This document shows, in pieces, positions 1 to 15,672 of a stretch of 64,000 nt of DNA. Positions within the stretch are counted from its first letter, which is position 1. The number at the start of each line of letters is the position of its first letter. The translations under genes and the position numbers were made by a program. The DNA is from Acetatifactor sp. (lineage in GTDB: Bacteria > Bacillota > Clostridia > Lachnospirales > Lachnospiraceae). The stretch spans positions 122 to 64,121 of the forward strand of contig JAZQLH010000029.1 in assembly GCA_045542555.1 (NCBI GenBank), in the 5' to 3' direction. A model generated the notes under the pieces. The model was not told the origin of the DNA, did no database searches, and saw only the letters and a list, made by a program, of their open reading frames with translations.

Positions 1-2400
1 CCCGCTGTACTACTCTCTCATAATAGTTTCGCACATCTCGGCCATTGCCAAATTTTTCGCCTTTTTCGGCATCCATTCTTGCAAAATGTTCTTTCAGATA
101 AGGAACGGCTTCTTCGGATATTTCATATTGTTCCTTCACGCAATAAGACCTAAATATCTCAAACATTTCATCCGGAATATAGTCAGGGAAGTCAATAAAG
201 TACTTAAATCGACTTTCTAGACCGGGATTGCTGGCAAGAAAATCCTGCATTTCCTTTTTGTATCCCGCCACAATCACAATCAGATTGTCCCTGTTATCCT
301 CCATAGCTTTTAATATAGTGTTGATTGCCTCCCGGCCAAAATCGCGAGGACTATCCTGAGGACTCAATGTATAGGCCTCATCAATAAACAACACACCACC
401 TAATGCACTATCTATAACTGCTTGCGTTTTGGGGGCAGTTTCTCCTATATATTGTCCAACAAGAGAAGCTCTATCACATTCCACCAGCTTATCTGTCGGA
501 ATAACGCCTATTTCATGAAATACTTGTGCAATAATACGTGCTACCGTTGTTTTACCGGTTCCAGGATTACCTGTGAAAACCATATGCATGGATGCATTTT
601 CAACATTTCTTCCCATCTCCCGGAGCTTTTTTTGTGCAATTATCTTCTTTTTCAGATTAAGCACTTCTATCTTTACAGAATCCAGCCCGATCATTCCGTC
701 CAACTCTTCCAGCGCAGATTTTTGGCTTGTCTGCTCTACTCCGGACTCATCTTCATTCTCTTCTTCAGTTTCATCTGCAATGTCCTCTTTCATAATGGTC
801 ATAAAGTCCATTTCCGTTAATCCGTTGATACCCAGACGACTTATTCTCACATTCTGCTTTTTCAATACTTTTTCAAAGAAATTTCTAACATCTCGACCAT
901 TTGCAAAGTTTTCATTCTTACTATTAATCATCTTTGTCATTTCCTTAATCACAGTTTCCCATGAATCATCAGAAACAACATATCCCCTGCTGTCACAGGT
1001 ATACTTGAAAATCTGAACCATTTCCGCCACAGTATAATCTTCAAAATCCATAAACAGGCTAAATCTTGACTGTAACCCGGGGTTAGTATCTATAAAATCT
1101 TTCATTTCTTTTGTATATCCGGCTACGATTACAATCAGATTATCCCTGTTATCCTCCATAGCCTTCAAAAGAGTATTAATTGCCTCCTGACCAAAATCAC
1201 GTGAACTATCTTTGGGACACAATGCATAAGCTTCAACAATAAATAATACACCACCTAATGCACTGTCAATGACCGCTTGCGTTTTGGGGGCTGTATGACC
1301 TACATGTTGTCCTACAAGAGTTGCTCTGTCACATTCCACTAATTTATCTGTAGGAATAATGCCTATTTCGTGAAAAACCTTTGCAATGATACGTGCTACA
1401 GTTGTTTTACCGGTTCCCGGATTACCTGTAAAGACCATATGCATAGATGCGCTCTCTACATTTCTTCCCATATCCCGAAGCTTCTTCTGTGCTATAATCG
1501 TCTTCTTTAAATTATACACTTCTGCCTTCACAGAATCCAATCCAATCATTCGGTCCAATGCTGCCAGTGCAGAATTTTGACTTGACTGCTTTATTTCTTC
1601 CTCTTCTACAATATCTTCCTTAGAAATCGTCATAAAGTCCATTTCTGATAAACTGTTAATATCCAAACGGCTTATTCTGACATTTTGCTTTTTCAAAACT
1701 TTTTCAAAGAAATTTCTTACATCTCGACCATTCGCAAAAGTTTGTGACTTGTTACGATTTATTTTAGTCATTTCATTAATTACTGCTTGCCATGCATCGT
1801 CAGCAACAACATATCCTTTGCTGTCACAGGTTAATTTAAACATCTGAACCATTTCCGGCACAGTATAATCTTCGAACTCCAAAAACATATTGAATCGTGA
1901 CTGCAAGCCGGGATTACTGTCTATGAAATCTCTCATTTCATTCGTATATCCCGCCACAATCACAATCAGATTATCCCTGTTATCCTCCATAGCCTTCAAA
2001 AGAGTATCAATTGCTTCCTGACCAAAATTATCACCCGCTGAACTGAGTGTATAAGCTTCATCAATAAACAGCACGCCACCCAACGCACTTTCAACAACCT
2101 GTAGTGTTTGGGATGCAGTCTGACCCGAATATTTTGCAACAAGGGATGTTCTGTCACATTCTATCAACTTTTCTGTAGGAATAATACCTATTTCATGCAA
2201 TATTCTTGCAATAATTCTTGCCACTGTGGTCTTACCGGTTCCGGGATTACCTGTAAACACCATATGTAATGACATTTTCTGGGTTTCTTTTCCCATTTCC
2301 TTCAATTTCTGCTGCACTTCCACAAAAGACTTTAAGTTATGAACCTCTTCTTTTACCTTCTGGAGACCAATCATCCGGTCCAATTCATCCATTGCAGACT
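1..2400 (-). repeat. Intragenic tandem triplication of the AAA+ module (period about 825-855 nt)
   Basis: The same block recurs three times in frame: MIGL..VK..V..LK, then MHMVFTGNPGTGKTTVARI, then GGVLFI(D/V)EAY, then MEDNRDNLIVIVAGY, then NPGLQSRF. Modules 2 and 3 are also visibly similar at nucleotide level. Confidence 0.85.
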
Positions 2401-4525
2401 TTTGCCCGGGAAAATCTTCAAATACTTCAACCTTAAACTTTTCATACATTATTTGCTTAAAATTTTCCTCATACGCAATTATCTTTTGCGCTATAGACAA
2501 TAACTCGTCATAATCCTCATAAGAAGAACTATCCTCCACAGCTTGCAAAAGTTCAATGGCTTCTCTGGCAACGCTTACACTTCTCTCCTTTGTCAGCTTG
2601 TTCTTGGCAAGTAAAACATATGCCTCCTTTTGACCACCCTCTACAGCCTTGCTAAGCCATTTCTCTGCCTTTTCCAAATCCTTATCTGTTCCTATACCCT
2701 CCTGATAAGCACATCCCAATCGAAGCATTGAATATGCATCTTTCGCATTTACACCCTTTTTATACCATCTCATTGCCTCCTCAAGATCTCGCTCTACTCC
2801 TTCACCATTTCGGAAAATATCACCAAGTCTTCCCATTGCTTCCGCATATTCATTTTCTGCGGCCTTCCTAAACCATGCTGCAGCCTTGGCAAAATCCTGC
2901 TCTACTCCTCTACCTTTATAATACACCAAACCCAGTGTATACATCGTCCTTGCATGTCCACCATCCGCGGCCTTCCTAAACCACGCAATTGCCTCTGAAT
3001 AATTTTGCTCTACGCCGCTTCCTTCCCAATACATTGCGCCAAGATTACCCATAGCTGCAGCGTATCCTGCATCTGCTGCCTTCTTAAACCACGATATCGC
3101 CTCTAAAAAATCCCGTTCCACGCCCTTACCGGAATAATACAACAAACCCACACTATGCAATGCCTGCGCATATCCGGCATCTGCTGCTTTCCTATACCAT
3201 TCTGCAGCCTTGACATAATCATTCTCTACTCCTTCGCCGTAATAATATGCCTGACCATAATGATACATTCCCTCAACATGTCCTTCTTCTGCCGCATTTC
3301 GGAACCAAATTGCTGCTTTTTCATAATCTTTCTCTACTCCCTGTCCATACTCATACGCCAGGCCAAGATTATCCATTGCAGATTGATTTCCCTTTTCCAC
3401 TGCCTTTTGAAACCATTTTACTGCTTTGTCGTAATCTTTCTCTACTCCCCGGCCATACTTATACGCCAAACCAAGGTGATTCATTGCCTCAACATATTCG
3501 TTTTGTGCCGCTTTTTCAAACCATTTTGCCGCTTTGCTATAATTTCGCTGTATGCCATTTCCTTCATAATATGCCAGACCCAAACTGTACATTGCTTCAA
3601 CATGACCATTTTCTGCTGCCTTTTTGAACCAATCGGCTGCTACGGCCAAATCCTGATTTACCCCACTTCCATTGGCATATGCTTTTCCAAGAATATTCAT
3701 AGCCGAACCGCTTCCTGCTTCCGCTCCTTTTATATACCAATCCATTGCCTTGGCAAAATCTTGTTTTACTCCCTGACCATTTGCGTACAATTGACCGAGA
3801 TTGTACATCGCATAGCCATCTCCGCCATCTGCTCCCTTCTTAAACCACTGAATTGCTTTTGCATAATTTTGTTCTACACCTTGGCCATTCATATATAACA
3901 AGCCGAGACCAGTCTTTGCAGAAGAGTCTCCGGCATTCGCGCCCTTTTTATACCACTCCGCAGCCATATTCGCATCCTGCTCTATTCCATTTCCCTGTAG
4001 ATAAGCATCACCCAGATAACACATAGACTCCGTATCTCCGGCTTCAGCTGCTTTTTGAAACCAAGCAGTTGCCTTAACAGCATCTGCTTCTATATTTTCC
4101 ATAAAATCCTTCCTACAATATGCAAATGCCATATATCTCATAGAGGGAATATGTCCGGATTCTGCTGATTTCTCCAGCCAATAGAAAGCTTTATTAAGGT
4201 CCTTATCAACAATCTGACCTTTGTAATGCTTCGCATACATATCAACCATGGCATCTTCATGACCAAGCTCTGCTGCCAGACTCATCCACTTGATACCCTC
4301 TTTTAAATCTACTTTCACACCCAGTCCCTGATAAAATGCGATTGCCATATTGAACGTTGCATCCAGATTACCGGCAGTAGCAGCCTTATAAAACCAATTC
4401 ACACTTTCTGCCAAATCCTTCTCAACACCTGAGCCCTCCCGATAGGCAAGTCCCAGTTTATTCATCGCCACCGCATCTCCGAACTTCGCCTTCATTTGCC
4501 ATGTAGATATCTTAATATCAGCCAT
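1..4525 (-). CDS. Sel1-repeat protein fused to three tandem CbxX/SpoVK-type AAA+ ATPase modules (N-terminus complete, C-terminus beyond window start; at least 1508 aa)
   Basis: Hand translation of the minus strand from ATG 4525-4523 (RBS GGAGGAG 4534-4540) stays open to nt 1. With no stop in the window it is absent from the ORF track. About 17 Sel1 repeats (A..W..KAA..G...A...LG..Y..G.GVE.D) span nt ~4500-2650. Walker A GNPGTGKTT codons start at 2251, 1426 and 571, all in frame with the ATG. Walker B is LFIDEAY in modules 1 and 3 and LFIVEAY in module 2. Confidence 0.85.
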   Translation of the reverse strand, partial: MADIKISTWQMKAKFGDAVAMNKLGLAYREGSGVEKDLAESVNWFYKAATAGNLDATFNMAIAFYQGLGVKVDLKEGIKWMSLAAELGHEDAMVDMYAKHYKGQIVDKDLNKAFYWLEKSAESGHIPSMRYMAFAYCRKDFMENIEADAVKATAWFQKAAEAGDTESMCYLGDAYLQGNGIEQDANMAAEWYKKGANAGDSSAKTGLGLLYMNGQGVEQNYAKAIQWFKKGADGGDGYAMYNLGQLYANGQGVKQDFAKAMDWYIKGAEAGSGSAMNILGKAYANGSGVNQDLAVAADWFKKAAENGHVEAMYSLGLAYYEGNGIQRNYSKAAKWFEKAAQNEYVEAMNHLGLAYKYGRGVEKDYDKAVKWFQKAVEKGNQSAMDNLGLAYEYGQGVEKDYEKAAIWFRNAAEEGHVEGMYHYGQAYYYGEGVENDYVKAAEWYRKAADAGYAQALHSVGLLYYSGKGVERDFLEAISWFKKAADAGYAAAMGNLGAMYWEGSGVEQNYSEAIAWFRKAADGGHARTMYTLGLVYYKGRGVEQDFAKAAAWFRKAAENEYAEAMGRLGDIFRNGEGVERDLEEAMRWYKKGVNAKDAYSMLRLGCAYQEGIGTDKDLEKAEKWLSKAVEGGQKEAYVLLAKNKLTKERSVSVAREAIELLQAVEDSSSYEDYDELLSIAQKIIAYEENFKQIMYEKFKVEVFEDFPGQKSAMDELDRMIGLQKVKEEVHNLKSFVEVQQKLKEMGKETQKMSLHMVFTGNPGTGKTTVARIIARILHEIGIIPTEKLIECDRTSLVAKYSGQTASQTLQVVESALGGVLFIDEAYTLSSAGDNFGQEAIDTLLKAMEDNRDNLIVIVAGYTNEMRDFIDSNPGLQSRFNMFLEFEDYTVPEMVQMFKLTCDSKGYVVADDAWQAVINEMTKINRNKSQTFANGRDVRNFFEKVLKKQNVRISRLDINSLSEMDFMTISKEDIVEEEEIKQSSQNSALAALDRMIGLDSVKAEVYNLKKTIIAQKKLRDMGRNVESASMHMVFTGNPGTGKTTVARIIAKVFHEIGIIPTDKLVECDRATLVGQHVGHTAPKTQAVIDSALGGVLFIVEAYALCPKDSSRDFGQEAINTLLKAMEDNRDNLIVIVAGYTKEMKDFIDTNPGLQSRFSLFMDFEDYTVAEMVQIFKYTCDSRGYVVSDDSWETVIKEMTKMINSKNENFANGRDVRNFFEKVLKKQNVRISRLGINGLTEMDFMTIMKEDIADETEEENEDESGVEQTSQKSALEELDGMIGLDSVKIEVLNLKKKIIAQKKLREMGRNVENASMHMVFTGNPGTGKTTVARIIAQVFHEIGVIPTDKLVECDRASLVGQYIGETAPKTQAVIDSALGGVLFIDEAYTLSPQDSPRDFGREAINTILKAMEDNRDNLIVIVAGYKKEMQDFLASNPGLESRFKYFIDFPDYIPDEMFEIFRSYCVKEQYEISEEAVPYLKEHFARMDAEKGEKFGNGRDVRNYYERVVQR

Positions 4526-4552: not shown

Positions 4553-4597
4553 GAAAAGCCAAAGTCATAAATACTTTTTTCAAGACTTTGGCTTTTC
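4553..4597 (-). terminator. Intercistronic 14-bp perfect hairpin between the membrane-protein gene and the Sel1/AAA+ gene (attenuator, processing or stabiliser hairpin; no clear U-tract)
   Basis: GAAAAGCCAAAGTC (4553-4566) pairs with GACTTTGGCTTTTC (4584-4597) across a 17-nt loop. On the minus strand it is followed by ATCATACTTTTGGG, not a clean T-run. Confidence 0.4.
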
Positions 4598-4604
4598 GAA
4601 AATG

Positions 4605-5405
4605 CTATTTATTATTCTTTTTTCTAATCTGCTCCATGATGTCAGCATTAAGTGTTACATCACTCTTTTCTGCCACAACACTACCCGTATTACTGCTTTT
4701 TGCAATTACATTAGGCCTTTTTATCTTAATGCCACCCATGAAAAACAAGACAATGCCAACACCATGTATTACAATGTCAAGTACAATAGCAATTACAACA
4801 AATGTGAAATTATCTTCCGTTGGCGGAAAGGAAAAAGTAAGTATTGTACAAAAAGAAATAAATGTATTTATCAAAGACGGAACAATACCTACTACAAGCC
4901 CTAAAATTCTACAATCCGGCGGAATCCATGTGTCCGACGAACGAAATCCCAAGTACACACCCACAAAATGAAATGCCAGTACTAATACAAAAAAGAGTAC
5001 TCTGGGCATTGGGGACGGCCACTGCATTTCTATAAATGATAAAATTGTTGCAGACGTCATAGATGCAACACAACCGTAACTTGCCGCTAAATTCCATATG
5101 GTTAACTGACTGGAACATATCATTAACAGGAAAATGACGAAGAAGATAAAAATATCTATCTCAACCATAAAAAGCGTATCTGCATCCAACTTGGCCAAAA
5201 GCGTTCTTTCTATCGCAAATACGGACATGGAATCGGCAGAGCCTCCTGTGGCGAAATACCAAACCAGATAGGATATTCCTACCAACATTGTCAACACCAT
5301 TTCTCTGGTATGATTTTGAGCAATATAAGTAATTAACTCAATAAGGACCTTAATAGGAAACGTAAAAAGTTTAAATATTAAAAAGACATCCCATCTTACC
5401 CACAC
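4605..5405 (-). CDS. Polytopic membrane protein, unknown family
   Basis: 266-aa track ORF (GTG start) with multiple hydrophobic segments. Same strand as the Sel1/AAA+ gene, and its stop lies 79 nt upstream of that gene's ATG. Confidence 0.6.
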   Translation of the reverse strand: MWVRWDVFLIFKLFTFPIKVLIELITYIAQNHTREMVLTMLVGISYLVWYFATGGSADSMSVFAIERTLLAKLDADTLFMVEIDIFIFFVIFLLMICSSQLTIWNLAASYGCVASMTSATILSFIEMQWPSPMPRVLFFVLVLAFHFVGVYLGFRSSDTWIPPDCRILGLVVGIVPSLINTFISFCTILTFSFPPTEDNFTFVVIAIVLDIVIHGVGIVLFFMGGIKIKRPNVIAKSSNTGSVVAEKSDVTLNADIMEQIRKKNNK

Positions 5406-5449: not shown

Positions 5450-7006
5450 CTACTTTTTCTTTTTGCTGCCCAGAACAACCAGGAATACTATCACGCCTAC
5501 AACACCTACAGCTGCAATAGGTATCAGAATACCCATTTTGCCGGCACCGGAATCTGTTGCCTGCTCCTTTTCAACAGCAACCAATTTGATAGGTTCCCCG
5601 TACATTTCGAATGCTTCATGATATACATCTGTTAAATAATTTCCTTCTTCATCGTGCAAAGACTGGTCAACAATCGTTACTTTATCAACGATTTCGAGCT
5701 CTTCCGAACCATTTGATAAAAGAACCTGTACATTATAAGGACATTCTCTACTTATACGAATAGGAACCATTTCACCTTCGTCACCATAAGGTTGAACTGT
5801 AATGTATTCTGCCAGTTTATCATCTATTGTAATTTCGTAGTCCTTTGGTTCATAATAGAAATAAATCGTCGCATCTCCCTTTGGTGTTACAAAAGAATAG
5901 CTGTACTCTCCAAGATTTTCATTCCATTCCACCTGATAAAATGAAAGTCCGGATGCTCTCAAGTTTACAAACCGATAACCAAGCTTGACATTAGAACGTG
6001 TTCCAACGGTGTATCCTTTATAATGGCCACCCATTCCTATAGGATATCCCAAACCATCTACTGCCACATATGTAACAGAACCTACCTCTTCACCTGTATC
6101 TGCATTTGTTACTATTTCCGGCTCTCTTTGAGTATCTTCAATAACCTCATCGTTTTTAATATCTTCATAATGTCTGGGATTTACAGAATAAATAGCTTCC
6201 ATTTCTTTGCTGTTATCTTCTGCCACTACACCAGAGTCTGCTCCTGTTTTATCTGTATCCACAGATGCATTGGGAGTATTTGTATTTTCGTTAGATGCCT
6301 CCGTTTGCACTTCTTGCTCGTTGCTATTTTCGACAATCTTAGAGTCGTACTCTTTTGCCCACTCCTCAAAATATGCAGAAACTTCACTAATCCACTCTAC
6401 TTCTCCAATTAATACATAGATTCTGGGATCTCCTGCCCCTTCTTCTACTTCTACCCAAATCCCGGGATCTTCTGTATATCCTTCTCCTAATTTAAAATCG
6501 GGGCTCAATGTTTGGATACTACATGCAGTATTTGATCCGTATCCCACATAATTTTCATATCCATAATTATGGAAATTATAATATCCCGGATAGATACCAA
6601 ACTGTGCCTGATGTAACACACCGGTCTCATTTCCGAGCTGTACAGTATCAAGTTTGTTGTATTCCATAGGCATACCCAGGTCAAACTCAAACAGATGGGT
6701 TCCATACGTCTCCTCTGAATCAAACTTTCCCTCAAACTGATATCTTTCAAAGTCGTTCTGTTCGACAGTCCATTTGTCCTGTCGAACAAAGTACATGATA
6801 ACATGTTGCTCTGCTCCACAATGATTGTTTAATTCATACAGCGCTTCATATCCCTCACCGACTCTACTACCAATTTTGCTATTCGTAGCATACTTATCCT
6901 CGTACTCCTTTGCGTACGCAACGGAAGAAAATAGTGTACTAAAAGCCATTAAAGTGCCCAATGCAGAAATTAAACATTTCTTTATCAATTCTTTCTTCAC
7001 TATCAT
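5450..7006 (-). CDS. Secreted, C-terminally membrane-anchored protein of unknown function
   Basis: 518-aa track ORF. Signal peptide ends ..FSSVAYA/KE. An acidic low-complexity linker (ENSNEQEVQTEASNENTNTPNASVDTDK) sits mid-protein. The C-terminus is a TM helix followed by KKKK. Confidence 0.65.
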   Translation of the reverse strand: MIVKKELIKKCLISALGTLMAFSTLFSSVAYAKEYEDKYATNSKIGSRVGEGYEALYELNNHCGAEQHVIMYFVRQDKWTVEQNDFERYQFEGKFDSEETYGTHLFEFDLGMPMEYNKLDTVQLGNETGVLHQAQFGIYPGYYNFHNYGYENYVGYGSNTACSIQTLSPDFKLGEGYTEDPGIWVEVEEGAGDPRIYVLIGEVEWISEVSAYFEEWAKEYDSKIVENSNEQEVQTEASNENTNTPNASVDTDKTGADSGVVAEDNSKEMEAIYSVNPRHYEDIKNDEVIEDTQREPEIVTNADTGEEVGSVTYVAVDGLGYPIGMGGHYKGYTVGTRSNVKLGYRFVNLRASGLSFYQVEWNENLGEYSYSFVTPKGDATIYFYYEPKDYEITIDDKLAEYITVQPYGDEGEMVPIRISRECPYNVQVLLSNGSEELEIVDKVTIVDQSLHDEEGNYLTDVYHEAFEMYGEPIKLVAVEKEQATDSGAGKMGILIPIAAVGVVGVIVFLVVLGSKKKK

Positions 7007-7151
7007 TTTCCCCTCTCTTTTTCTTTTGTTTTGAATATATAATGCGTTTTATATTATAGTATATTTTATAATTCAAGTCAACTAACCCAATACTTATTCC
7101 ACCACTCCAAAACCTATTGTGTAGTATTATAAGTGACAAGGAGGGATTGAT

Positions 7152-7436
7152 ATGGTTGACTTTGGAAACGCTCTGAAAACACTGCGTATAAAAGAAGACA
7201 TGACACAAGCACAACTGGCACAAAAGCTGGGTCTTACAAAATCTGTCATCAGTGCTTACGAAACCAGTCTTCGCCTACCTTCTTATGATGTACTGATTCA
7301 CATTGCGAAAATATTCAATGTAAGCACAGACTATCTGTTGGGCTTAGAGCATAAACAGGAAATAGACTTATCCGGTTTAACCCATGAGGAAATAACTGCC
7401 CTCTTAAATTTAATTGAGGCCATGAGACGACGTTAA
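7152..7436 (+). CDS. XRE-family helix-turn-helix transcriptional regulator
   Basis: 94 aa with HTH_3-like MTQAQLAQKLGLTKSVISAYETSLRLPS. Strong RBS AAGGAGGG precedes the start. It is divergent from the 7006-to-1 gene string. Confidence 0.85.
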   Translation: MVDFGNALKTLRIKEDMTQAQLAQKLGLTKSVISAYETSLRLPSYDVLIHIAKIFNVSTDYLLGLEHKQEIDLSGLTHEEITALLNLIEAMRRR

Positions 7437-7486: not shown

Positions 7487-7520
7487 CAAAAAAAGAGAAG
7501 GTACTTTTACCTTCTCTTTT
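7487..7520. terminator. Bidirectional rho-independent terminator between convergent XRE and CPBP genes
   Basis: GAGAAGGTA (7495-7503) pairs with TACCTTCTC (7508-7516). An A-run lies upstream and a T-run downstream. Confidence 0.6.
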
Positions 7521-7530
7521 ACTTTGCTTT

Positions 7531-8352
7531 CTATTCCTCCAAAAGATTTCCCACATGTTTTGTTTCAAAAAACATCTCTTTGTTGGTAAGTACAATTATT
7601 ATAGCTACAATAACGATAAAAATGGTTTCTATACATTTGGTTTCCGGAGTCATATTAATTTTCTCTTGCATAATATTTATGAATATATGAAAAATAATTG
7701 TCGCCAGCATGCTTCTGTTATTCTTTACATATACCCATGTTTGCAGAAAATCAAGGGGAATCACGCTCACAAGGAAATTAAGTACATAGATAATTCCCAT
7801 CTCTCTAAGACCATACTGGTATGTTCCGGGAACCCAAAATAACGGAATATGCCAGCATGCCCATATTACACCAAAAATAATGGACTCCTTAAACCAGTTG
7901 TAATACGCACCTACAGCATCTTCTCCATATCCTCTCCATCCCAATTCTTCTATGCAGGAAGCCAGTAATATGGTAAGTAACGCAGATGTTCCTCCTATGG
8001 AAAAGGAGAAATCTTCTGTAAAAGAAAATTGTTCTGCGGAACCGCCAAACAATATGGAAGTTCCTATAGATGCCACTACTGCGATTGCAAATAAGCAAAC
8101 AGCAAGAACGATGTATCTTGGCTTTATACGGTAGAAACCTACAATTTTTCTCTTAAAGTCCTGCTTTAATGCATTGCTTTTCGATGTTAAAACAGTCACA
8201 ACCGCCACTATGGCAGGAGTCATCAAGCCCAAAAGCATGAACAAAAATAGCAGGGGACTTTCTTTACATAATATAGCAAGCAACCAGAAAAACCATGTTA
8301 CAGCGAATACAGTAATATAAAACCGAAAAGGCCTGTAAGTATAACGTTCCAT
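7531..8352 (-). CDS. CPBP-family (CAAX/Abi-type) intramembrane glutamic metalloprotease
   Basis: Motifs EELGWRGY (EExxxR), FGVIWACWH and HIFIN in a polytopic protein. I prefer ATG 8352 (GGAGG at 8359-8363, 6-nt spacer) to the track start at 8385. Confidence 0.8.
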   Translation of the reverse strand: MERYTYRPFRFYITVFAVTWFFWLLAILCKESPLLFLFMLLGLMTPAIVAVVTVLTSKSNALKQDFKRKIVGFYRIKPRYIVLAVCLFAIAVVASIGTSILFGGSAEQFSFTEDFSFSIGGTSALLTILLASCIEELGWRGYGEDAVGAYYNWFKESIIFGVIWACWHIPLFWVPGTYQYGLREMGIIYVLNFLVSVIPLDFLQTWVYVKNNRSMLATIIFHIFINIMQEKINMTPETKCIETIFIVIVAIIIVLTNKEMFFETKHVGNLLEE

Positions 8353-8353
8353 C

Positions 8354-9235
8354 TTACGCCTCCTCTCTGGTAATGAATAATTCACTCTTCATACCATTCA
8401 GTTCAATATAATTGTCCGCATTTTCCGAAGAGAAATCCTCTACCCGAGTGCCCTGGTTTTCATAGTATATAGCCGTGCCAATCCCTCTTTTTCTCGCTCT
8501 AAAGGAAAAATCATTGGGTACCTTTATTCTTGATATCGCTGAAATCTGATTGATTTCCAGAGCGCCCTCGTGGGAAACAACTTCCACCGACATATCCAAG
8601 TTGCAGTTTATTTCTACCTCGCCCTTGCTGTCCTTGAGATAGACTTCCGTTACTTTGCCATCAAATTCAATGCTTTTACATTCAATATCTGTTATTTCTA
8701 ATCTCTTAGCATTAACAGCAACTTCAACCTTGCCAATATATTTTTGAGGAATGTCAATCCTTATCACAATACCTTCTTTTGCATGTGCCTCTGTTGCTCC
8801 ATTCATTCTTTGCAAGTCAACGTCAATCCTATTTTTCACATCATCTATTTTAATTTTGTAATCACTTTGAAGCTCTTTTATGATGTTTGACAATAGAGAT
8901 ACCTTTATTTTTTCTCCCACATAAGAAGTAAGAATTACAGTATGTGCGCTGCCTAATTTGATATCATAACCCTTAACGCCGTCGATGTCGTATTCGGTTA
9001 TGCTTTCGTATAAATACTCTGACTGTTCCTTTTCACTTTTCCCATTCAGCAAAAGCTCATCTAATGAAATCTGAAACAACTCCGCTATCGCAACCAAATT
9101 AGCTATGTCCGGTGTTCCGGTTCCGTTTTCCCATTTTGTAACGGCTTGTCTGGATACACCAATCATCTCTGCCATCTTCTCTTGGGATATGCCTGCCTGC
9201 TTTCTACAATTTCTGATTTGTTCTTCTAAAGTCAT
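8354..9235 (-). CDS. XRE HTH domain fused to a DUF4097-like beta-strand-repeat domain
   Basis: N-terminus reads AGISQEKMAEMIGVSRQAVTKWENGTGTPDIANLVAIAELFQISLDELL. The C-terminal ~200 aa carry repetitive V.V/I.I beta-strand patterns typical of DUF4097-type proteins. The stop TAA (8356-8354) lies between the RBS and ATG of the CPBP gene. Confidence 0.65.
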   Translation of the reverse strand: MTLEEQIRNCRKQAGISQEKMAEMIGVSRQAVTKWENGTGTPDIANLVAIAELFQISLDELLLNGKSEKEQSEYLYESITEYDIDGVKGYDIKLGSAHTVILTSYVGEKIKVSLLSNIIKELQSDYKIKIDDVKNRIDVDLQRMNGATEAHAKEGIVIRIDIPQKYIGKVEVAVNAKRLEITDIECKSIEFDGKVTEVYLKDSKGEVEINCNLDMSVEVVSHEGALEINQISAISRIKVPNDFSFRARKRGIGTAIYYENQGTRVEDFSSENADNYIELNGMKSELFITREEA

Positions 9236-10729: not shown

Positions 10730-10754
10730 TTTACTGCTGGTGGCCGGACTTGAA
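10730..10754. repeat. att core repeat, distal copy (duplicated tRNA-Leu 3' end)
   Basis: Identical 25-mer to 15648-15672. The flanking bases differ (10729 A vs 15647 T; 10755 A vs 15673 C). Confidence 0.9.
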
Positions 10755-10813
10755 AACAAAGTCCGATGGCCGGAACATTGATAGAAAGGAGTTTCCGGCT
10801 CTCTCGCTTGGGT

Positions 10814-10832
10814 GTGTAAACGGAGTGTAAAC
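10814..10832. promoter_or_regulatory. Putative integrase arm-type sites: two direct GTGTAAAC octamers spaced 11 bp (left end)
   Basis: GTGTAAAC at 10814-10821 and 10825-10832. The same pair with the same 11-bp spacing sits at the other end (15591-15598 and 15602-15609). Confidence 0.55.
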
Positions 10833-10837
10833 ATCTT

Positions 10838-11113
10838 TTATAACAAGCTATCGTTGAATAGTCTTTCAATATCTCCGGCCTCAAATTTCATATCCTGAAA
10901 CTGTCTAGCCTGCGTCATGGTAACTAAGATATTTGAAACTACCCTGTGCCATGCCTTGTAACGTTCAAGCGATTCTATAATTCTCCCTAAGTCTTGCTTT
11001 GAAATCATAATCATTTCTCCACCTGAAACCGCAACAACTTCACCTTCAACCGCTAATTCTTTGTAAGATAGTCCCAATTCCGTCAATAGTGTTTCTAATT
11101 CTTTTTCTTTCAT
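10838..11113 (-). CDS. Hypothetical protein (islet cargo)
   Basis: 91-aa track ORF with no recognisable motif. AT-rich. Confidence 0.45.
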   Translation of the reverse strand: MKEKELETLLTELGLSYKELAVEGEVVAVSGGEMIMISKQDLGRIIESLERYKAWHRVVSNILVTMTQARQFQDMKFEAGDIERLFNDSLL

Positions 11114-11376
11114 ACTGCAACCTCCACATCTAATTATTTAATTATCTATATTATAATCTTTCCAACTACTATAAGTCCATTTGTAACCTTCACAATTATA
11201 ACTCTTTAATAGAAATTTGGAGGCATTAGTACAACTACTATTATACGTGTATTAAAATTAAAGACTCCTTTCTCTAACCTGCAAAACTTATTTTTTTATT
11301 GACCTTTATGCAATTTGCACAATAAAAGGCATTACCCTATATGGAGTAAAAGGCTTTGTGTTAATGTCCTTCTATT

Positions 11377-11787
11377 CTATCTCCATTGATTCCATTTATT
11401 TACTCGTTTTACTACGTCTTCAGTATTGATAAAACTAACAGGATATACAGCCTCATTTAATGCTTCGTATGTTCCATCTTCTTGTACTTGCTGCAGCACA
11501 ATTCTCAGTTTATTTCGCAACATTGCGCCAAAGGAATTTTGTGCATCTACTTCTGCATATAGATATATTCTTCCATAATTATCTTTATCTTGAATTTCTA
11601 TTGTTTCAAAGTTTACAGTAGAAGGTGCTTTAAGGTGCTTTTTGATACAATCCTTACATGCTTCGATAATTAACTCGTCCATAGTTTTAGGATTTTCATT
11701 TTGAACACTTTTTTCAACTTTTGCACCACATTGAAAACAGAATAATGCATTATCTGATATTTGCGTACCACACTTACTACAAAACAT
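11377..11787 (-). CDS. Zinc-ribbon domain protein (islet cargo)
   Basis: CSKCG..N..FCFQCG is a double CxxC zinc ribbon at the N-terminus. I prefer ATG 11787 (RBS AAAGGAG) to the track start at 11835. A TATAAT-like box lies upstream. Confidence 0.6.
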   Translation of the reverse strand: MFCSKCGTQISDNALFCFQCGAKVEKSVQNENPKTMDELIIEACKDCIKKHLKAPSTVNFETIEIQDKDNYGRIYLYAEVDAQNSFGAMLRNKLRIVLQQVQEDGTYEALNEAVYPVSFINTEDVVKRVNKWNQWR

Positions 11788-11912
11788 ACTCCACACTCCT
11801 TTTATCTTTTTAAATATTATAACATATTTTACCACAATTAGAAAATAATTAGCATAATATTAAAACAACTTTAGAAACAAAAATTCTAAAAAAGATGTAA
11901 ATAAATATATGT

Positions 11913-13445
11913 CTACATTTTCTTAAACAGTTTCCAAGTATATGTCAGATATTTTTCTTCCAATTCATGACCATCAATAAATTCAATATTTACAAGATGA
12001 AATCTATCGTCTTCATCCAAACAATGCACAAGCCTCGTACCTGGATGAATTGCATAGTACAAATTATCGAATTGCGAATGACAATTGGGGCATAGTACGA
12101 CCATATTACCAATTGTGTCATCTCCCTTGTGTATCTTGTTATATGGTCGAATATGATGTGCTTCGGAATAAGCTTCAAATCTTGTTTTCATCAATCTTGT
12201 TCCACACAATTGACAACAATTATTATATGCCAGTTTTAAATTTTCTGCTAAATAAGTACTTCTGACCAAACGTGACAATTCGATATCTTTACTTTTTTGA
12301 TTGTTTTGACTCATTGAATCATATAATACCACATCATCCATACCGATATCATTCTCCTCAGAATATCTATTACAAACAGTTACCCATTCTGCACCTTCTT
12401 CATTTGCATCATCTTCATCTTCAAGGTCTATATTACTTTCGTAGTAATCAACAGCTTTATCATAACTTTCAACTACGTCTGCAATACTAAGAAGATTTGC
12501 AATGCTATTGGGATTATACACTATTCCGTAGTCTGATGTATATTCCTTAGTAGCATTCTTCAATTGCTCATTTGAAAAACCGACCATTGGCAATATGTCT
12601 GCAACACCTCTGCCTTTTGTAGCAACCAAATAATGATAAATTCTACTATAGTTTAACTGTTGGCTACCTACTGTAAGAAATCCATTACTTTTTAACTTAT
12701 AGTTAGCAAATAGATAATTCTGATAACTATTATCAAATGCTTCGTCCTGTGGTGCTCTAAAAAATAGTTCGTCGGAAAGCATATCAATCTTAAAGTAATC
12801 CACATATGCAATAATATACTTTATTATTTCTTCGCCAAGATGAATCCATTTAAGAAGACCGTCATCCGGCTTGTCATCCATTCTAACATTTCTTATTCTT
12901 TGCTCATTTATTAGCACATCATTACATTTTAATTGGCGTATATGTCTCTGTTCAAATATACAAAAATAACAAATTGCACTCATACATTGGGTTATTATTC
13001 TTTCTTCCGTATTCCGAAACTCTCCATCTTTCCCAAGTATAATATTTTGTATATCAGAAAGTGAAATTACGGATTTGTTATTCTTTTCTTTGTTCCCAAT
13101 ATATACAAATTCAAAATCAAATCTCTTATCTAATTTACCCTGCTTAATAAGAAAATCCTTAAGTTTTCTCAATGCAGAACGTATTACTAAACTTCTTCTA
13201 TAATTCTGTTGAAAATCTATTATTCTATCTTCAGAAAAAATACTTTCATAATCCGCATCATCCACCTGATTACGAACTTCATTAAGCAAATATTCTTTGA
13301 CAATATCTACATATAAATTCTTTGTAGATTCTTTCTTTTCTGCTACAAATTCAGTAAATTCATTGACAATCGTGCTTATTTCTTGATATGTAATAGCCCC
13401 CACAAATTTACCCTCCTTTATTTGCTCTACAGTATTATAAATCAT
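11913..13445 (-). CDS. HNH endonuclease-domain fusion protein; the N-terminal ~330 aa possibly form a degenerate tyrosine-recombinase-like DNA-binding module
   Basis: C-terminal HNH motif: CQLCG..(14)..AHHIRP..(12)..GNMVVLCPNCH. N-terminal segments resemble an integrase SAM-like/core-binding region (YRRSLVIRSALRKLKDFLIKQGKL) and a decayed catalytic fold (FEQRHIRQL, LNYSRIYHYLV). Confidence 0.7.
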   Translation of the reverse strand: MIYNTVEQIKEGKFVGAITYQEISTIVNEFTEFVAEKKESTKNLYVDIVKEYLLNEVRNQVDDADYESIFSEDRIIDFQQNYRRSLVIRSALRKLKDFLIKQGKLDKRFDFEFVYIGNKEKNNKSVISLSDIQNIILGKDGEFRNTEERIITQCMSAICYFCIFEQRHIRQLKCNDVLINEQRIRNVRMDDKPDDGLLKWIHLGEEIIKYIIAYVDYFKIDMLSDELFFRAPQDEAFDNSYQNYLFANYKLKSNGFLTVGSQQLNYSRIYHYLVATKGRGVADILPMVGFSNEQLKNATKEYTSDYGIVYNPNSIANLLSIADVVESYDKAVDYYESNIDLEDEDDANEEGAEWVTVCNRYSEENDIGMDDVVLYDSMSQNNQKSKDIELSRLVRSTYLAENLKLAYNNCCQLCGTRLMKTRFEAYSEAHHIRPYNKIHKGDDTIGNMVVLCPNCHSQFDNLYYAIHPGTRLVHCLDEDDRFHLVNIEFIDGHELEEKYLTYTWKLFKKM

Positions 13446-13586
13446 TGTATCACATCACTTACATTTGTAAAATGAATTTATATTTCCATTCACTTTATAA
13501 AAAGTTTATAATTTTCCCTCTAAATAGATATTCATTTCCCACCGATACCAATATTACACAACAAAATAAAAATAGTTCCTTAAACG

Positions 13587-13634
13587 GCAAGACAATTTAA
13601 GAAGCATTCTGCTTCTGATATGTCTTGCTTTTTT
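13587..13634 (+). terminator. Terminator-like hairpin plus T-run in the islet's divergent control region
   Basis: GCAAGACA (13587-13594) pairs with TGTCTTGC (13621-13628). There is an inner GAAGC/GCTTC stem, and TTTTTT follows. Confidence 0.4.
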
Positions 13635-13823
13635 ATATGCAAAAGTAACCTTGTCATCTTATTACATTACTTTTGATTAATTACTACTTCTGTCTCGGTA
13701 ATTTTTCTAAAAGGACAAAAAAGACACGTTTTCATCTGTTTTGGAAGCAAAAAACAAAGTCAACAAATTAATTTATATTAATTACCGTCAAAATCGGTAA
13801 CTTTCAAGGAGGTATTAATTACT

Positions 13824-14246
13824 ATGGATAATTACGAAAGCAGACCTTTATATTCCATGCCATTTCCCAAACCGCTTAAGGAAATGACGGACGAGGAATT
13901 AAACAATCTTCTTACCGGGAAATTCAATTACAATGTACTAATCCCGGCGTTAATTGAAGCTCACTTGCGGAAAGATGAGCAAATCGCCGTACTTACCAAG
14001 CGAATTGCCTATCTTGAACAAAAGGCTCTCCAAAAGCCCGGACGTCCTCGCAGGGAGTTTTGGATTGACGGCCGGGAACTGACAGACGAGTACCTAATGG
14101 AACTGATTGACTACGGCTATTATGATAGCATCAGCAAACTAGAAAAGGAATTACACGCCGGTAAAAATCAGCTCCGCAATCGCTACAACAAAGCAAAAGA
14201 GAAGCAACTTCTAGAAAGGAAGGTAAAAAGTTATGGGAATAGTTAG
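13824..14246 (+). CDS. Small islet protein upstream of and overlapping the integrase gene (possible excisionase or regulator)
   Basis: 140 aa with RBS AAGGAGG. Contains a basic KPGRPRREF segment. It overlaps the integrase start by 14 nt. Confidence 0.5.
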   Translation: MDNYESRPLYSMPFPKPLKEMTDEELNNLLTGKFNYNVLIPALIEAHLRKDEQIAVLTKRIAYLEQKALQKPGRPRREFWIDGRELTDEYLMELIDYGYYDSISKLEKELHAGKNQLRNRYNKAKEKQLLERKVKSYGNS

Positions 14247-15579
14247 ACCAATCGTGCAGGAGTGGTGCGTACCCCAACAGTACACCTCTTCGCCGGAAGT
14301 AATCAAAAACTGCTTGCAGGAAGTCTTAGAAGATAGTATTCTTAAGCCACAAGCGAGCGAGCCGGATAATGAAGATATGAGAAAAGAAAAAAGAGAACGC
14401 ATTATCAAGGCACACATGGAGAAATATACAACTAAATATTATGAGTCAGACAACAGATGGCATTCTTTCCTGCCGGATGAAACCCTTCCACGAAAAATGC
14501 GACCCATTGCCAAGCGAAAGTTTGAAGACTTAGAAAAGGCCATCCTTGCCTATTATGAGGAGCAGGAGCAGATAAAGAACCGCAAGAAAATGACGCTCCG
14601 CAGACTTTACCCGGAATGGTTTGCCTACAAATGGCAAGACACCAACAATTCCAACTACATGAAGCATATCGAAGGCGAATGGAAACGGCATTATGTGGAT
14701 GACCCCATTATTGACCGCCCTGTTGTAGAATTTACTACTCTAGAGCTCAAAAACTGGGCAAGAAGTAAGATTGTAGCCGGACACATGACCAAGAAGCAGT
14801 ATTACAACATGGCAATCATCATTCGCCAGAGCTTGGACTACCTTGTGGAGCTTGGGGAACTGTCTACCAATCCTTATGCCAACTTCAAGATTAATCCCTC
14901 ACTATTTACGCCTGCCAAGCACAAAGAGGCAGAAGAAAGGGTATTTATTGAAGATGAGGAAAAGCAATTGAAGCAGATTGCTCTAAAGGATTTTGCCGAA
15001 CACCCGGAGCATATCGGTGCGGCAGCGGTGCTTATCAATCTATCCTTGGGACTTCGTGTATCAGAACTTGTTGGTCTTAAGTGGAAAGACCTAAAAGACG
15101 GTTATCTGCATATCCGACGCATGGAGCAGAAGCAATGGGAACGACATGCAGACGGCACTTGGAAATCCTATCTGGCAGTTGTGGAGCATACCAAATCCAC
15201 CGCCGGCGTCAGAACCCTTTATGTGGTTTCCTCTTCTCTTGCCTTATTTGAGCAAGTACGGGAAGCCAACAGACAAAGAGGTTATGGTTGCGAGCCGGAA
15301 GATTATATTTTCCAACATGCCGGAAATCGGATTACAGCTAATTCCATTGACAGCTACTATGAGCGGTACTGTAAACAACTTGGAATTGCCAAGAAGGGGA
15401 ATCACGGTGCAAGAAGAACGGCATTAACTAAGATTGCCGACAATCCCAACATTAACCTAAAGGACGCCATGGAATGGGCAGGACACCGGGATGTAAAGAC
15501 TTTTATAAATCACTACTGCTATTCCCGATACTCTGACGAACAGAAAAGAAATGAACTGGAGAAAACCCTAAATCTCTAG
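14233..15579 (+). CDS. int: Tyrosine-type site-specific integrase
   Basis: Catalytic signature present: GLRVSELVGLKW (Arg), HGARRT (His-x-x-Arg), GHRDVKTFINHYCY (His..Tyr). Adjacent to the att core and tRNA-Leu. Confidence 0.9.
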   Translation: MGIVRPIVQEWCVPQQYTSSPEVIKNCLQEVLEDSILKPQASEPDNEDMRKEKRERIIKAHMEKYTTKYYESDNRWHSFLPDETLPRKMRPIAKRKFEDLEKAILAYYEEQEQIKNRKKMTLRRLYPEWFAYKWQDTNNSNYMKHIEGEWKRHYVDDPIIDRPVVEFTTLELKNWARSKIVAGHMTKKQYYNMAIIIRQSLDYLVELGELSTNPYANFKINPSLFTPAKHKEAEERVFIEDEEKQLKQIALKDFAEHPEHIGAAAVLINLSLGLRVSELVGLKWKDLKDGYLHIRRMEQKQWERHADGTWKSYLAVVEHTKSTAGVRTLYVVSSSLALFEQVREANRQRGYGCEPEDYIFQHAGNRITANSIDSYYERYCKQLGIAKKGNHGARRTALTKIADNPNINLKDAMEWAGHRDVKTFINHYCYSRYSDEQKRNELEKTLNL

Positions 15580-15590
15580 TATTTATCAGC

Positions 15591-15622
15591 GTGTAAACAT
15601 GGTGTAAACAAATTTACACACA
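15591..15622. promoter_or_regulatory. Putative integrase arm-type sites (right end): two direct GTGTAAAC octamers spaced 11 bp plus one inverted GTGTGTAAA copy
   Basis: GTGTAAAC at 15591-15598 and 15602-15609. TTTACACAC (reverse complement GTGTGTAAA) at 15613-15621. Confidence 0.55.
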
Positions 15623-15647
15623 AAAAATCCAGCATTTCTGCTGGATT

Positions 15648-15672
15648 TTTACTGCTGGTGGCCGGACTTGAA
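15648..15672. repeat. att core repeat, tRNA-proximal copy
   Basis: Identical 25-mer to 10730-10754. Positions 15653-15672 are the 3' end of tRNA-Leu. Confidence 0.9.

Follow-up and report, generated by a model that had tools for sequence, protein, structure and literature searches.

How should one read a gene that joins a long array of Sel1 repeats to three AAA+ modules in a single chain, and what might its product do? The question is raised by a 64,000-nucleotide stretch of Acetatifactor sp. DNA (assembly GCA_045542555.1, contig JAZQLH010000029.1, positions 122 to 64,121), called the window throughout, whose minus strand from 4525 to 1 translates into 1508 codons with zero stops. The gene call, the domain content and the assignment of its product, the Sel1-AAA protein, to the SpoVK-EccA-like clade of AAA+ ATPases can be regarded as close to certain. 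The original prediction, made from the letters of the window, had proposed an uninterrupted frame of at least 1508 residues, and re-translation of positions 1-4525 gave no in-frame stop; the length, which had been left open-ended, comes to 1535 residues in a complete version held in the protein database (P0001), 100% identical across the 1508 residues of the window. The last 27 residues (...VLVRFTEIGEDATEDDLVIRAEDVIEN) and the stop fall past the left window edge and are known from P0001, which originates from one 68-kb contig, the only contig with this exact protein. Translation begins at an ATG (MADIKIST...) placed 8 nucleotides past a ribosome-binding site, GGGAGGAG. As had been claimed, this is the largest gene of the window (1535 residues versus 877 for the longest complete open reading frame elsewhere) and is absent from the list of open reading frames, where only antisense frames appear, including 3155-3898; a start-to-stop list misses the gene because its frame runs off the left edge.

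The closest relatives are two-module proteins, P0002 and the protein of locus L014, with 56% identity overall. Against this background, the following features of the gene were delimited, all on the minus strand.

1..4525: Sel1-repeat/triple AAA+ gene, codons 1-1508 of 1535 (stop-free translation and database protein)
2630..4468: Sel1 array, residues 20-632, 16-17 repeats (Pfam, 108-nucleotide period, a profile built from its own repeats, global alignment)
2411..2629: linker of helical character, residues 633-705, also conserved in P0002 and L014 (alignments)
1601..2410: AAA+ module 1, residues 706-975 (motifs, alignments)
761..1585: AAA+ module 2, a mosaic, residues 981-1255 (motifs, alignments)
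1235..1237: codon GTT of Val1097 in the module 2 Walker B motif; GAT (Asp) in modules 1 and 3
1..730: AAA+ module 3, residues 1266-1508 of 1266-1535 (motifs, alignments)

About 17 Sel1 repeats had been counted in the N-terminal part, and the count holds: Pfam reports 16 stretches (PF08238, 468 bits in total against a gathering cut-off of 30.7), while a hidden Markov model made from the window's own repeats resolves 17 units at residues 20-632, 13 of which keep an exact register of 36 residues or 108 nucleotides. In a global alignment, residues ~283-558 (~7.7 repeats) have no counterpart in P0002; the array, too, has expanded. The three CbxX/CfxQ/SpoVK-type modules were likewise recovered, with three matches each to AAA (PF00004) and AAA_lid_6 in Pfam and to the SpoVK, EccA and CbbX families in NCBIfam. 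A linker does separate array and modules, but the predicted ~130 residues shrink to ~75 when measured to the helical hairpin of module 1, and a span of ~120 is reached only at the Pfam AAA core.

The modules measure ~270 residues each and are connected by short acidic linkers, disordered in the AlphaFold2 model. Structure prediction bore out the modules individually, whereas their overall packing was not fixed (monomer mean predicted local distance difference test score, pLDDT, 88; predicted template modelling score, pTM, 0.44; inter-module linkers below pLDDT 50). All three modules carry the Walker A sequence GNPGTGKT, an AGY sensor-1 signature, NPGL(Q/E)SRF and (A/G)NGRDVRN. Module 1 combines these (as NPGLQSRF and ANGRDVRN) with Walker B FIDEA and a YSG pore loop, and in module 3 every motif is canonical, with a YIG pore loop.

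In the PHROGs collection, phrog_8741 matches the P0001 Sel1 array at 739 bits, and phrog_4339 matches the AAA modules at 389 bits through the C-terminal half of its 552-position profile; both families are of unknown function. Thus, Sel1 proteins and N-terminally extended SpoVK-like ATPases are found in phages as well.

Clade placement of the AAA+ modules

To our knowledge, only three SpoVK-EccA-like clade members have been studied, namely CbbX, EccA and SpoVK, each a single-module protein with one dedicated client. The clade itself was defined in 2024 as a higher-order group of classical AAA+ proteins, recognised by a GY sensor-1 signature, a retained sensor-2 Arg and a helical hairpin ahead of Walker A (PMC11513918). 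Its members are chaperones dedicated to narrow targets, they often act at membranes or the cell envelope, and variable N-terminal domains (tetratricopeptide repeats, TPRs, in EccA) bring in the substrate (PMC11513918). The original prediction had recognised in the window protein the domain logic of EccA, a helical-repeat N-domain followed by a CbbX-type AAA+ domain, and this agrees with the published description of the clade (PMC11513918).

The GY signature, the sensor-2 Arg and the hairpin are all present. AGY occurs in 3/3 window modules and in 94/94 modules of Sel1-AAA relatives, and the sensor-2 Arg, within (A/G)NGRDVRN, is retained in 3/3 window modules. A helical pair (H21-27 and H32-53 in module 1, with equivalents in the other two modules) precedes strand 1 and Walker A with pLDDT >90, and this region aligns with CbbX residues 15-60. 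The Asn of the NPGLQSRF, NPGLQSRF and NPGLESRF motifs is present in modules 1, 2 and 3, respectively, but the Arg that CbbX has at Asn+4 is replaced. Among solved structures, module 3 matches CbbX (3zuh, 3syl) at 3e-59 and EccA1 (9lur) at 2e-48; CbbX is also the top Foldseek match, with 38% identity in the structural alignment.

Could the protein then be an orthodox SpoVK, which activates MurG in sporulation, an EccA chaperone of type VII secretion, or a CbbX Rubisco activase? Whole-protein NCBIfam totals of 811, 707 and 667 bits for SpoVK, EccA and CbbX surpass all three equivalog cut-offs, and CbbX and EccA1 are the nearest solved structures. However, each total is spread over three stretches, and the cut-offs are passed because three modules are summed. 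Taken singly, the modules score 280-290 bits against SpoVK (TIGR02881, cut-off 422.95), 237-250 bits against EccA (TIGR03922, cut-off 466.65) and 222-234 bits against CbbX (TIGR02880, cut-off 459.25), so that membership in any of the three equivalogs is refuted. The EccA model is matched only at profile positions 271-557, its AAA half, and the N-domain of SpoVK is short and β-rich, where Sel1 repeats are found here. The 10 kb upstream of the gene (the downstream side lies beyond the window) hold no type VII secretion system (T7SS), Rubisco or sporulation genes. An orthodox member of one of these families is therefore hardly credible, and the link to sporulation originally drawn through SpoVK falls with it, the modules reaching 280-290 bits each where 423 are needed. 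Because every module scores below all three cut-offs, the protein is placed by its sequence within the SpoVK-EccA-like clade, outside the three characterised families.

Origin of the middle module

Module 2 is built from two parts with different affinities. Its front (the first ~160 alignment columns, forming the α/β subdomain) shares 77-92% identity with module 3 and 53-76% with module 1, whereas its lid (the last ~100 columns) is 72-82% identical to module 1 and 30-38% to module 3. The same pattern is visible in the DNA, where window positions 362-586 and 1217-1441 (modules 3 and 2) agree at 84% over 225 nucleotides, and positions 771-1070 and 1602-1901 (modules 2 and 1) at 80% over 300 nucleotides. 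In P0002 and the L014 protein, module 1 is orthologous to window module 1 (69% identity) and the last module to window module 3 (76-77% identity). Judged from these alignments, module 2 very probably arose when an ancestor with two modules, A-B, was converted by unequal crossover to A-[B front/A lid]-B. As the hybrid halves have diverged by 16-20% from their parent modules, the crossover was not recent. The P0003 and P0007 lineages show a like pattern: their outer modules are orthologues of modules 1 and 2 in P0026 and P0030, relatives with two modules. A middle module has thus been gained at least three times independently.

The new module differs from its neighbours at a catalytic position. 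Val1097 replaces the Mg-coordinating Asp of Walker B through a single A-to-T difference, giving FIVEA. This Asp is present in 93/94 modules of Sel1-AAA proteins, module 2 being the sole exception, and across 75 multi-module relatives Asp makes up at least 90% of the same column. The pore-loop position also varies, reading HVG in module 2, YIG in module 3 and YSG in module 1. Judging by these motifs, module 2 is probably a nucleotide-binding, hydrolysis-poor module with a structural (or regulatory) role, and module 3, since it has full catalytic motifs and the canonical YIG pore loop, is likely to be the working motor.

The exact protein occurs on one contig only, none of the other modules among the 94 shows the Asp-to-Val change, and the modules are repeats of ~825-855 nucleotides, all of which might point to a misassembled three-module form or to a Walker B change that marks the onset of pseudogenisation. 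Yet the modules are 66-76% identical at the DNA level, too diverged for collapse or expansion by an assembler; the 16-20% divergence of the hybrid halves indicates an old event, the frame is open throughout 1535 codons, and the remaining motifs of module 2 are intact. Moreover, a middle third module was acquired independently in two other lineages. Artefact or decay is accordingly considered highly improbable.

The upstream membrane partner and a proposed mechanism

Upstream of the Sel1-AAA gene, the window contains the following features.

4553..4597, minus strand: stable hairpin in the spacer between partner and Sel1-AAA genes (-22.8 kcal/mol, z = -4.3)
4605..5405, minus strand: partner gene; its multi-pass membrane protein of 266 residues has 5 or more hydrophobic segments and matches no family
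5450..7006, minus strand: 518-residue protein, first gene of the probable operon, with a signal-like N-terminal segment and a C-terminal membrane anchor
7053..7081, minus strand: best sigma-70-like promoter (TTGACT-17-TATAAT, 11/12, a consensus match only), upstream of three same-strand genes
7152..7436, plus strand: divergent XRE-family helix-turn-helix (HTH) regulator

The three same-strand genes, encoding the 518-residue protein, the partner and the Sel1-AAA protein, form a probable operon. The partner has no family match in Pfam, PHROGs or PADLOC. A single-sequence search retrieved only the partner itself; a two-sequence profile then added one member, and the profile search of 5.8 billion proteins leaves a family of three, the window protein and two relatives. 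Both relatives are encoded directly upstream of Sel1-AAA orthologues, in L001-3 and L014, and the spacer to the Sel1-AAA gene (79 nucleotides in the window, 35 in L001 and L014) has the same ribosome-binding-site context. Whereas the three partner proteins are only ~34% identical overall, their C-terminal tail, D-x-TLN-x-x-I-x-EQIR-x-KNNK, is near-invariant and is preceded by a variable linker; none of the other loci retrieved contains this motif.

The rest of the neighbourhood is not shared in this way. The 518-residue protein is not conserved in the L001 or L014 loci, and neither it nor the HTH regulator has homology between the three loci; a divergent HTH gene does occur at L001, L014 and the P0013 locus, with dissimilar sequences. 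Downstream of the Sel1-AAA gene, L001 and L014 carry a SAM methyltransferase. The spacer hairpin was rejected as a conserved element, being missing from L001 and L014, and as a canonical terminator, no T-run lying behind it. At L014, the start of the Sel1-AAA gene was called, probably too far downstream, at 4476 (978 residues), the conserved N-terminus MADIKTK... and a window-type ribosome-binding site being found ~70 nucleotides upstream of it (about 4406-4476).

Taken together, these observations suggest a dedicated Sel1-armed AAA+ remodeller, and for the statement as a whole, membrane partner and crossover origin included, the balance of probability is modestly favourable. In such a protein, the 17-repeat Sel1 solenoid would serve as a recruitment platform for a client or adaptor, as the TPR domain does in EccA, and the three tandem CbbX/SpoVK-type modules would perform ATP-driven remodelling in a ring assembly. 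CbbX engages the C-terminal tail of its client, the Rubisco large subunit, and the likely action here would be similar, with a client peptide drawn through the central pore. Module 3 would be the likely motor and module 2 a degenerate tier, comparable to those of NSF or Pex1. In this sub-clade, the directly upstream-encoded membrane protein would be the client or anchor of the ATPase, with its near-invariant basic C-terminal tail as the most likely docking site or pulling handle; by analogy with CbbX, the role of the tail as client or handle is a tentative suggestion, somewhat short of probable. Its positive charge, the sole guide where the model is unusable, would place the tail on the cytoplasmic side. 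Two chains might assemble as a 3+3 ring, or six chains as three tiers; relatives with four or five modules are abundant, which speaks weakly against any strict in-plane hexamer rule. We infer the cytoplasmic position of the tail, its part as the contact, the oligomeric state, the direction of action and the manner of three-module assembly.

Several observations weigh against this proposal. The residue at Asn+4, the 'first arginine finger' of the clade, is Gln, Gln and Glu in the window modules, where CbbX has Arg; among the 94 Sel1-AAA modules this position varies (K 35, R 17, Q 15), while the Arg at Asn+6 is invariant (94/94). The AlphaFold2 monomer yields no confident inter-module geometry, given its pTM of 0.44 and linkers below pLDDT 50, and the model of the partner is unusable (pLDDT 47). 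The partner is limited to three loci, and the window's intergenic hairpin has no equivalent in the L001 or L014 spacers. The Val codon is known from a single contig, where a sequencing error is possible. Other Sel1-AAA relatives adjoin unrelated genes, both housekeeping and defence-like, so that no single conserved client can be assigned to the family, and no experimentally characterised member of the family was found in the literature.

A bolder version of the remodeller proposal, which we consider doubtful, is an undescribed two-component system in which a covalently tripled CbbX-type motor, either dimerised into a 3+3 pseudo-hexamer or stacked in three tiers of which the middle one is dead, is tethered by its Sel1 arm to the partner tail. 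The motor might then extract, gate or activate the partner, and could thereby trigger a membrane-disrupting defence response. On this view, bacteria would more generally harbour a large unexplored radiation of CbbX-type AAA+ proteins with 2-8 motors per chain, possible single-chain rings among them.

The main rival to the remodeller reading is a role in conflict or defence. Here the cassette would act against phages: the Sel1 array would sense an invader protein, the AAA+ modules would transduce or amplify the signal, and the membrane protein would be the effector, acting, for example, through membrane depolarisation or abortive infection. We judge this unlikely, if far from absurd. It is compatible with the remodeller mechanism and differs from it in the biological role and in the identity of the 'client'. 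Part of the evidence comes from the region to the right of the operon, where the window holds the following features.

7491-7520: perfect hairpin with a 13-bp stem and T-runs on both sides, between the HTH gene and the CPBP gene; resembles a bidirectional terminator
7531-8385, minus strand: Rce1-like/CPBP intramembrane protease gene
8354-9235, minus strand: XRE-HTH protein with a 230-residue unassigned C-terminal domain; 32-nucleotide overlap with the start of the CPBP gene
10730-15672: integrated element of ~4.9 kb at tRNA-Leu(taa), with exact 25-bp direct repeats (TTTACTGCTGGTGGCCGGACTTGAA) at 10730 and 15648
11377-11835: zinc-ribbon protein in the element
11913-13445: 510-residue HNH-domain protein in the element
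14233-15579: tyrosine integrase in the element

In favour of defence, the region is variable, with XRE regulators, the Rce1-like/CPBP protease and the adjacent integrated element; its G+C content over 1-10 kb is 37-43%, versus 44-47% further right, and the distribution of the sub-clade, known from three loci, is very patchy. Against this, the Sel1-AAA gene lies outside the element at tRNA-Leu, and the cassette has no nuclease or other classical effector. In phage and plasmid collections only tRNA genes of the window found a counterpart, and no phage or plasmid record matched otherwise. Nor do defence profiles single the gene out: PADLOC returns generic AAA matches only (TRIP13, and IetA at 103 bits summed over three modules) and leaves both neighbours unmatched, and the NCBIfam anti-phage family IteA reaches 96 bits where 510 are required.

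The genomic surroundings of relatives are divided. P0007 and P0030 each belong to a conserved trio, within a stretch resembling a defence island, whose other members are a Schlafen/AlbA_2 protein and a helicase-nuclease giant of ~3300 residues; in L005 the trio is preceded by nucleases of the DUF1016 type and by HNH and Z1 proteins. P0013 has a NERD protein on one side and HicB on the other, with an IS1595 transposase close by. P0003 and P0025, in contrast, are found among housekeeping genes. Two further points speak for defence: homologues fuse Sel1 arrays to TIR, caspase and protease effector domains, and CoCoNuT cassettes contain tandem SpoVK-family ATPases beside a glycine-zipper protein (PMC11090510).

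Several of these loci deserve a description of their own. The trio (L005 5864-19877; L015 223-13399) runs from the Schlafen/AlbA_2 gene through the Sel1-AAA gene to the ~3300-residue giant. Its Sel1-AAA protein has 2-3 AAA modules and a long C-terminal extension with a weak, sub-threshold transglutaminase-like (DUF553) match, and the giant contains Sel1, CpXC, DUF4011, Upf1-like helicase (AAA_11/12) and MTES_1575 domains. The DUF1016 nucleases that precede it in L005 are two in number. The trio looks like an undescribed defence system. In the window, the hairpin at 7491-7520 separates the convergent HTH gene (7152-7436, plus strand) and CPBP protease gene (7531-8385, minus strand), and the XRE-HTH protein at 8354-9235 and the CPBP protease likely constitute a regulator-protease pair. 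The 25-bp repeats of the integrated element correspond to the tRNA-Leu 3' end, with no third copy present, and the element has a G+C content of ~32% versus ~44% in its flanks. The Sel1-AAA gene was considered as part of this integrase island and rejected as such, the attachment repeats bounding 10730-15672 and the gene lying outside.

Distribution and comparison with known systems

The original prediction could name no characterised protein with this architecture, and that statement stands; the uniqueness it implied does not. Among the 120 best matches to the full protein and the L014 protein, at least 44 clusters pair at least four Sel1 repeats with 1-3 such modules, the majority with two modules and one with a single module. 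Some such proteins bear the JGI label 'TPR repeat protein/SpoVK/Ycf46/Vps4 family AAA+-type ATPase'. Three modules are present in seven Sel1-AAA clusters from three lineages: P0001, P0003-6 (including an NCBI genome assembly) and P0007-8. In a genome contig scan, the nearest relatives belonged to uncultured Clostridia, Lachnospiraceae and Treponema metagenome-assembled genomes at 32-45% identity, and no near-identical locus appeared. No paper was found that combines 'Sel1' and 'SpoVK', and none that describes Sel1 fused to tandem SpoVK/CbbX-type modules. Thus, the architecture is not unique; it is fairly common in sequence databases and has never been studied.

The modules also occur behind other N-termini. 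An exhaustive phmmer search of 1.84 billion representatives with one module as the query returned 11,228 proteins at E <= 1e-30, and nearly all of the best 150 are multi-module chains. The first 75 of these, the window protein included, carry three (30 proteins), four (29), five (12), six (3) or eight (1) modules, mostly behind N-termini other than Sel1. Six or eight modules in a single chain were seen outside the window in P0122, P0123, P0132 and P0138; P0122 (2233 residues) consists of eight CbbX/SpoVK-type modules and almost nothing besides. Such chains may form single-chain rings, and no literature on six- or eight-module CbbX/SpoVK-type chains was found. Long Sel1 arrays much like this one also occur in one chain with a TIR, caspase, trypsin-like protease or protein kinase domain (e.g., P0057, P0117, P0111, P0077 and P0015) in gut Bacteroidales (a Barnesiella Sel1-TIR protein has 1892 residues; one cluster has 971 member sequences) and in fungi. 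This suggests wide reuse of Sel1 arrays as a sensor or adaptor arm.

What the locus adds is that the same CbbX/SpoVK-type motor also occurs in covalent chains of several modules carried on a long Sel1 arm; by the searches, chains of 2-8 modules with many different N-terminal domains are abundant and unstudied. The textbook picture is unchanged, and the locus is a good lead rather than a surprise. It is also a tractable example, offering a readable crossover history from two to three modules, a natural Walker B knock-out in the newly gained module and a candidate client with a near-invariant tail of about 16 residues. Together, the crossover history, the Walker B change and the partner would allow tests of how tandem CbbX-type modules assemble and of what the Sel1 arm recognises.

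Among characterised proteins, EccA offers one close parallel. It, too, combines a helical-repeat recruitment N-domain with a CbbX-type AAA+ domain of the same clade, and it works with a membrane machine. However, EccA has one AAA module, preceded by TPR repeats and a β-helix, whereas the window protein combines three modules with 17 Sel1 repeats; no match is seen here to the N-terminal half of the EccA model, and the upstream neighbours include no T7SS genes. CbbX has the conserved motifs in common with the window protein, including the YIG pore loop of module 3, yet it is a single module of ~300 residues without a repeat arm, is encoded with Rubisco genes, and reads NPGFRSR where the window protein has NPGL(Q/E)SR. 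SpoVK is the best-scoring curated family for each module (280-290 bits) and belongs to the same clade of dedicated chaperones at membrane surfaces. It is the AAA+ protein of Bacillus sporulation that promotes MurG function (PMC11513918), and it differs in its single module, its short N-domain of three strands and one helix (PMC11513918) and its specificity for sporulation.

Type II AAA+ proteins (p97/Cdc48, NSF, Rix7, Pex1/6) likewise carry tandem modules in one chain, with differentiated positions and often one degenerate tier. Positional differentiation is apparent among the Sel1-AAA relatives as well, module 1 being closest to the module 1 of other proteins in 28/36 two-module relatives. 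The identity to type II proteins, however, is only 16-18%, and there are three modules here and up to eight in relatives. Foldseek matches of two modules at once to p97, Cdc48 or Rix7 were set aside as evidence of module stacking, the root-mean-square deviation being 8-14 Å on a model with pTM 0.44.

A comparable arrangement is found in Type III-A CoCoNuT extensions, where tandem SpoVK-family ATPases with one degenerate module lie beside a small glycine-zipper protein, as mentioned in a study of Type IV restriction systems (PMC11090510). The likeness extends to tandem SpoVK-family AAA+ modules, to the degeneration of one of them and to an adjoining small membrane-active protein, and that system, too, was described computationally. 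In CoCoNuT, however, it is the N-terminal module that is degenerate, not the middle one as here; no Sel1 array is described, the word 'Sel1' not occurring in the paper (PMC11090510); and VWA genes flank the ATPase inside McrBC-type systems, none of which is present at the window locus. Sel1 arrays on SpoVK/CbbX-type modules are already represented in databases, and tandem SpoVK-family ATPases in the literature. New here are the mosaic middle module, its Walker B Val together with the HVG pore loop, and the conserved upstream membrane partner in three loci.

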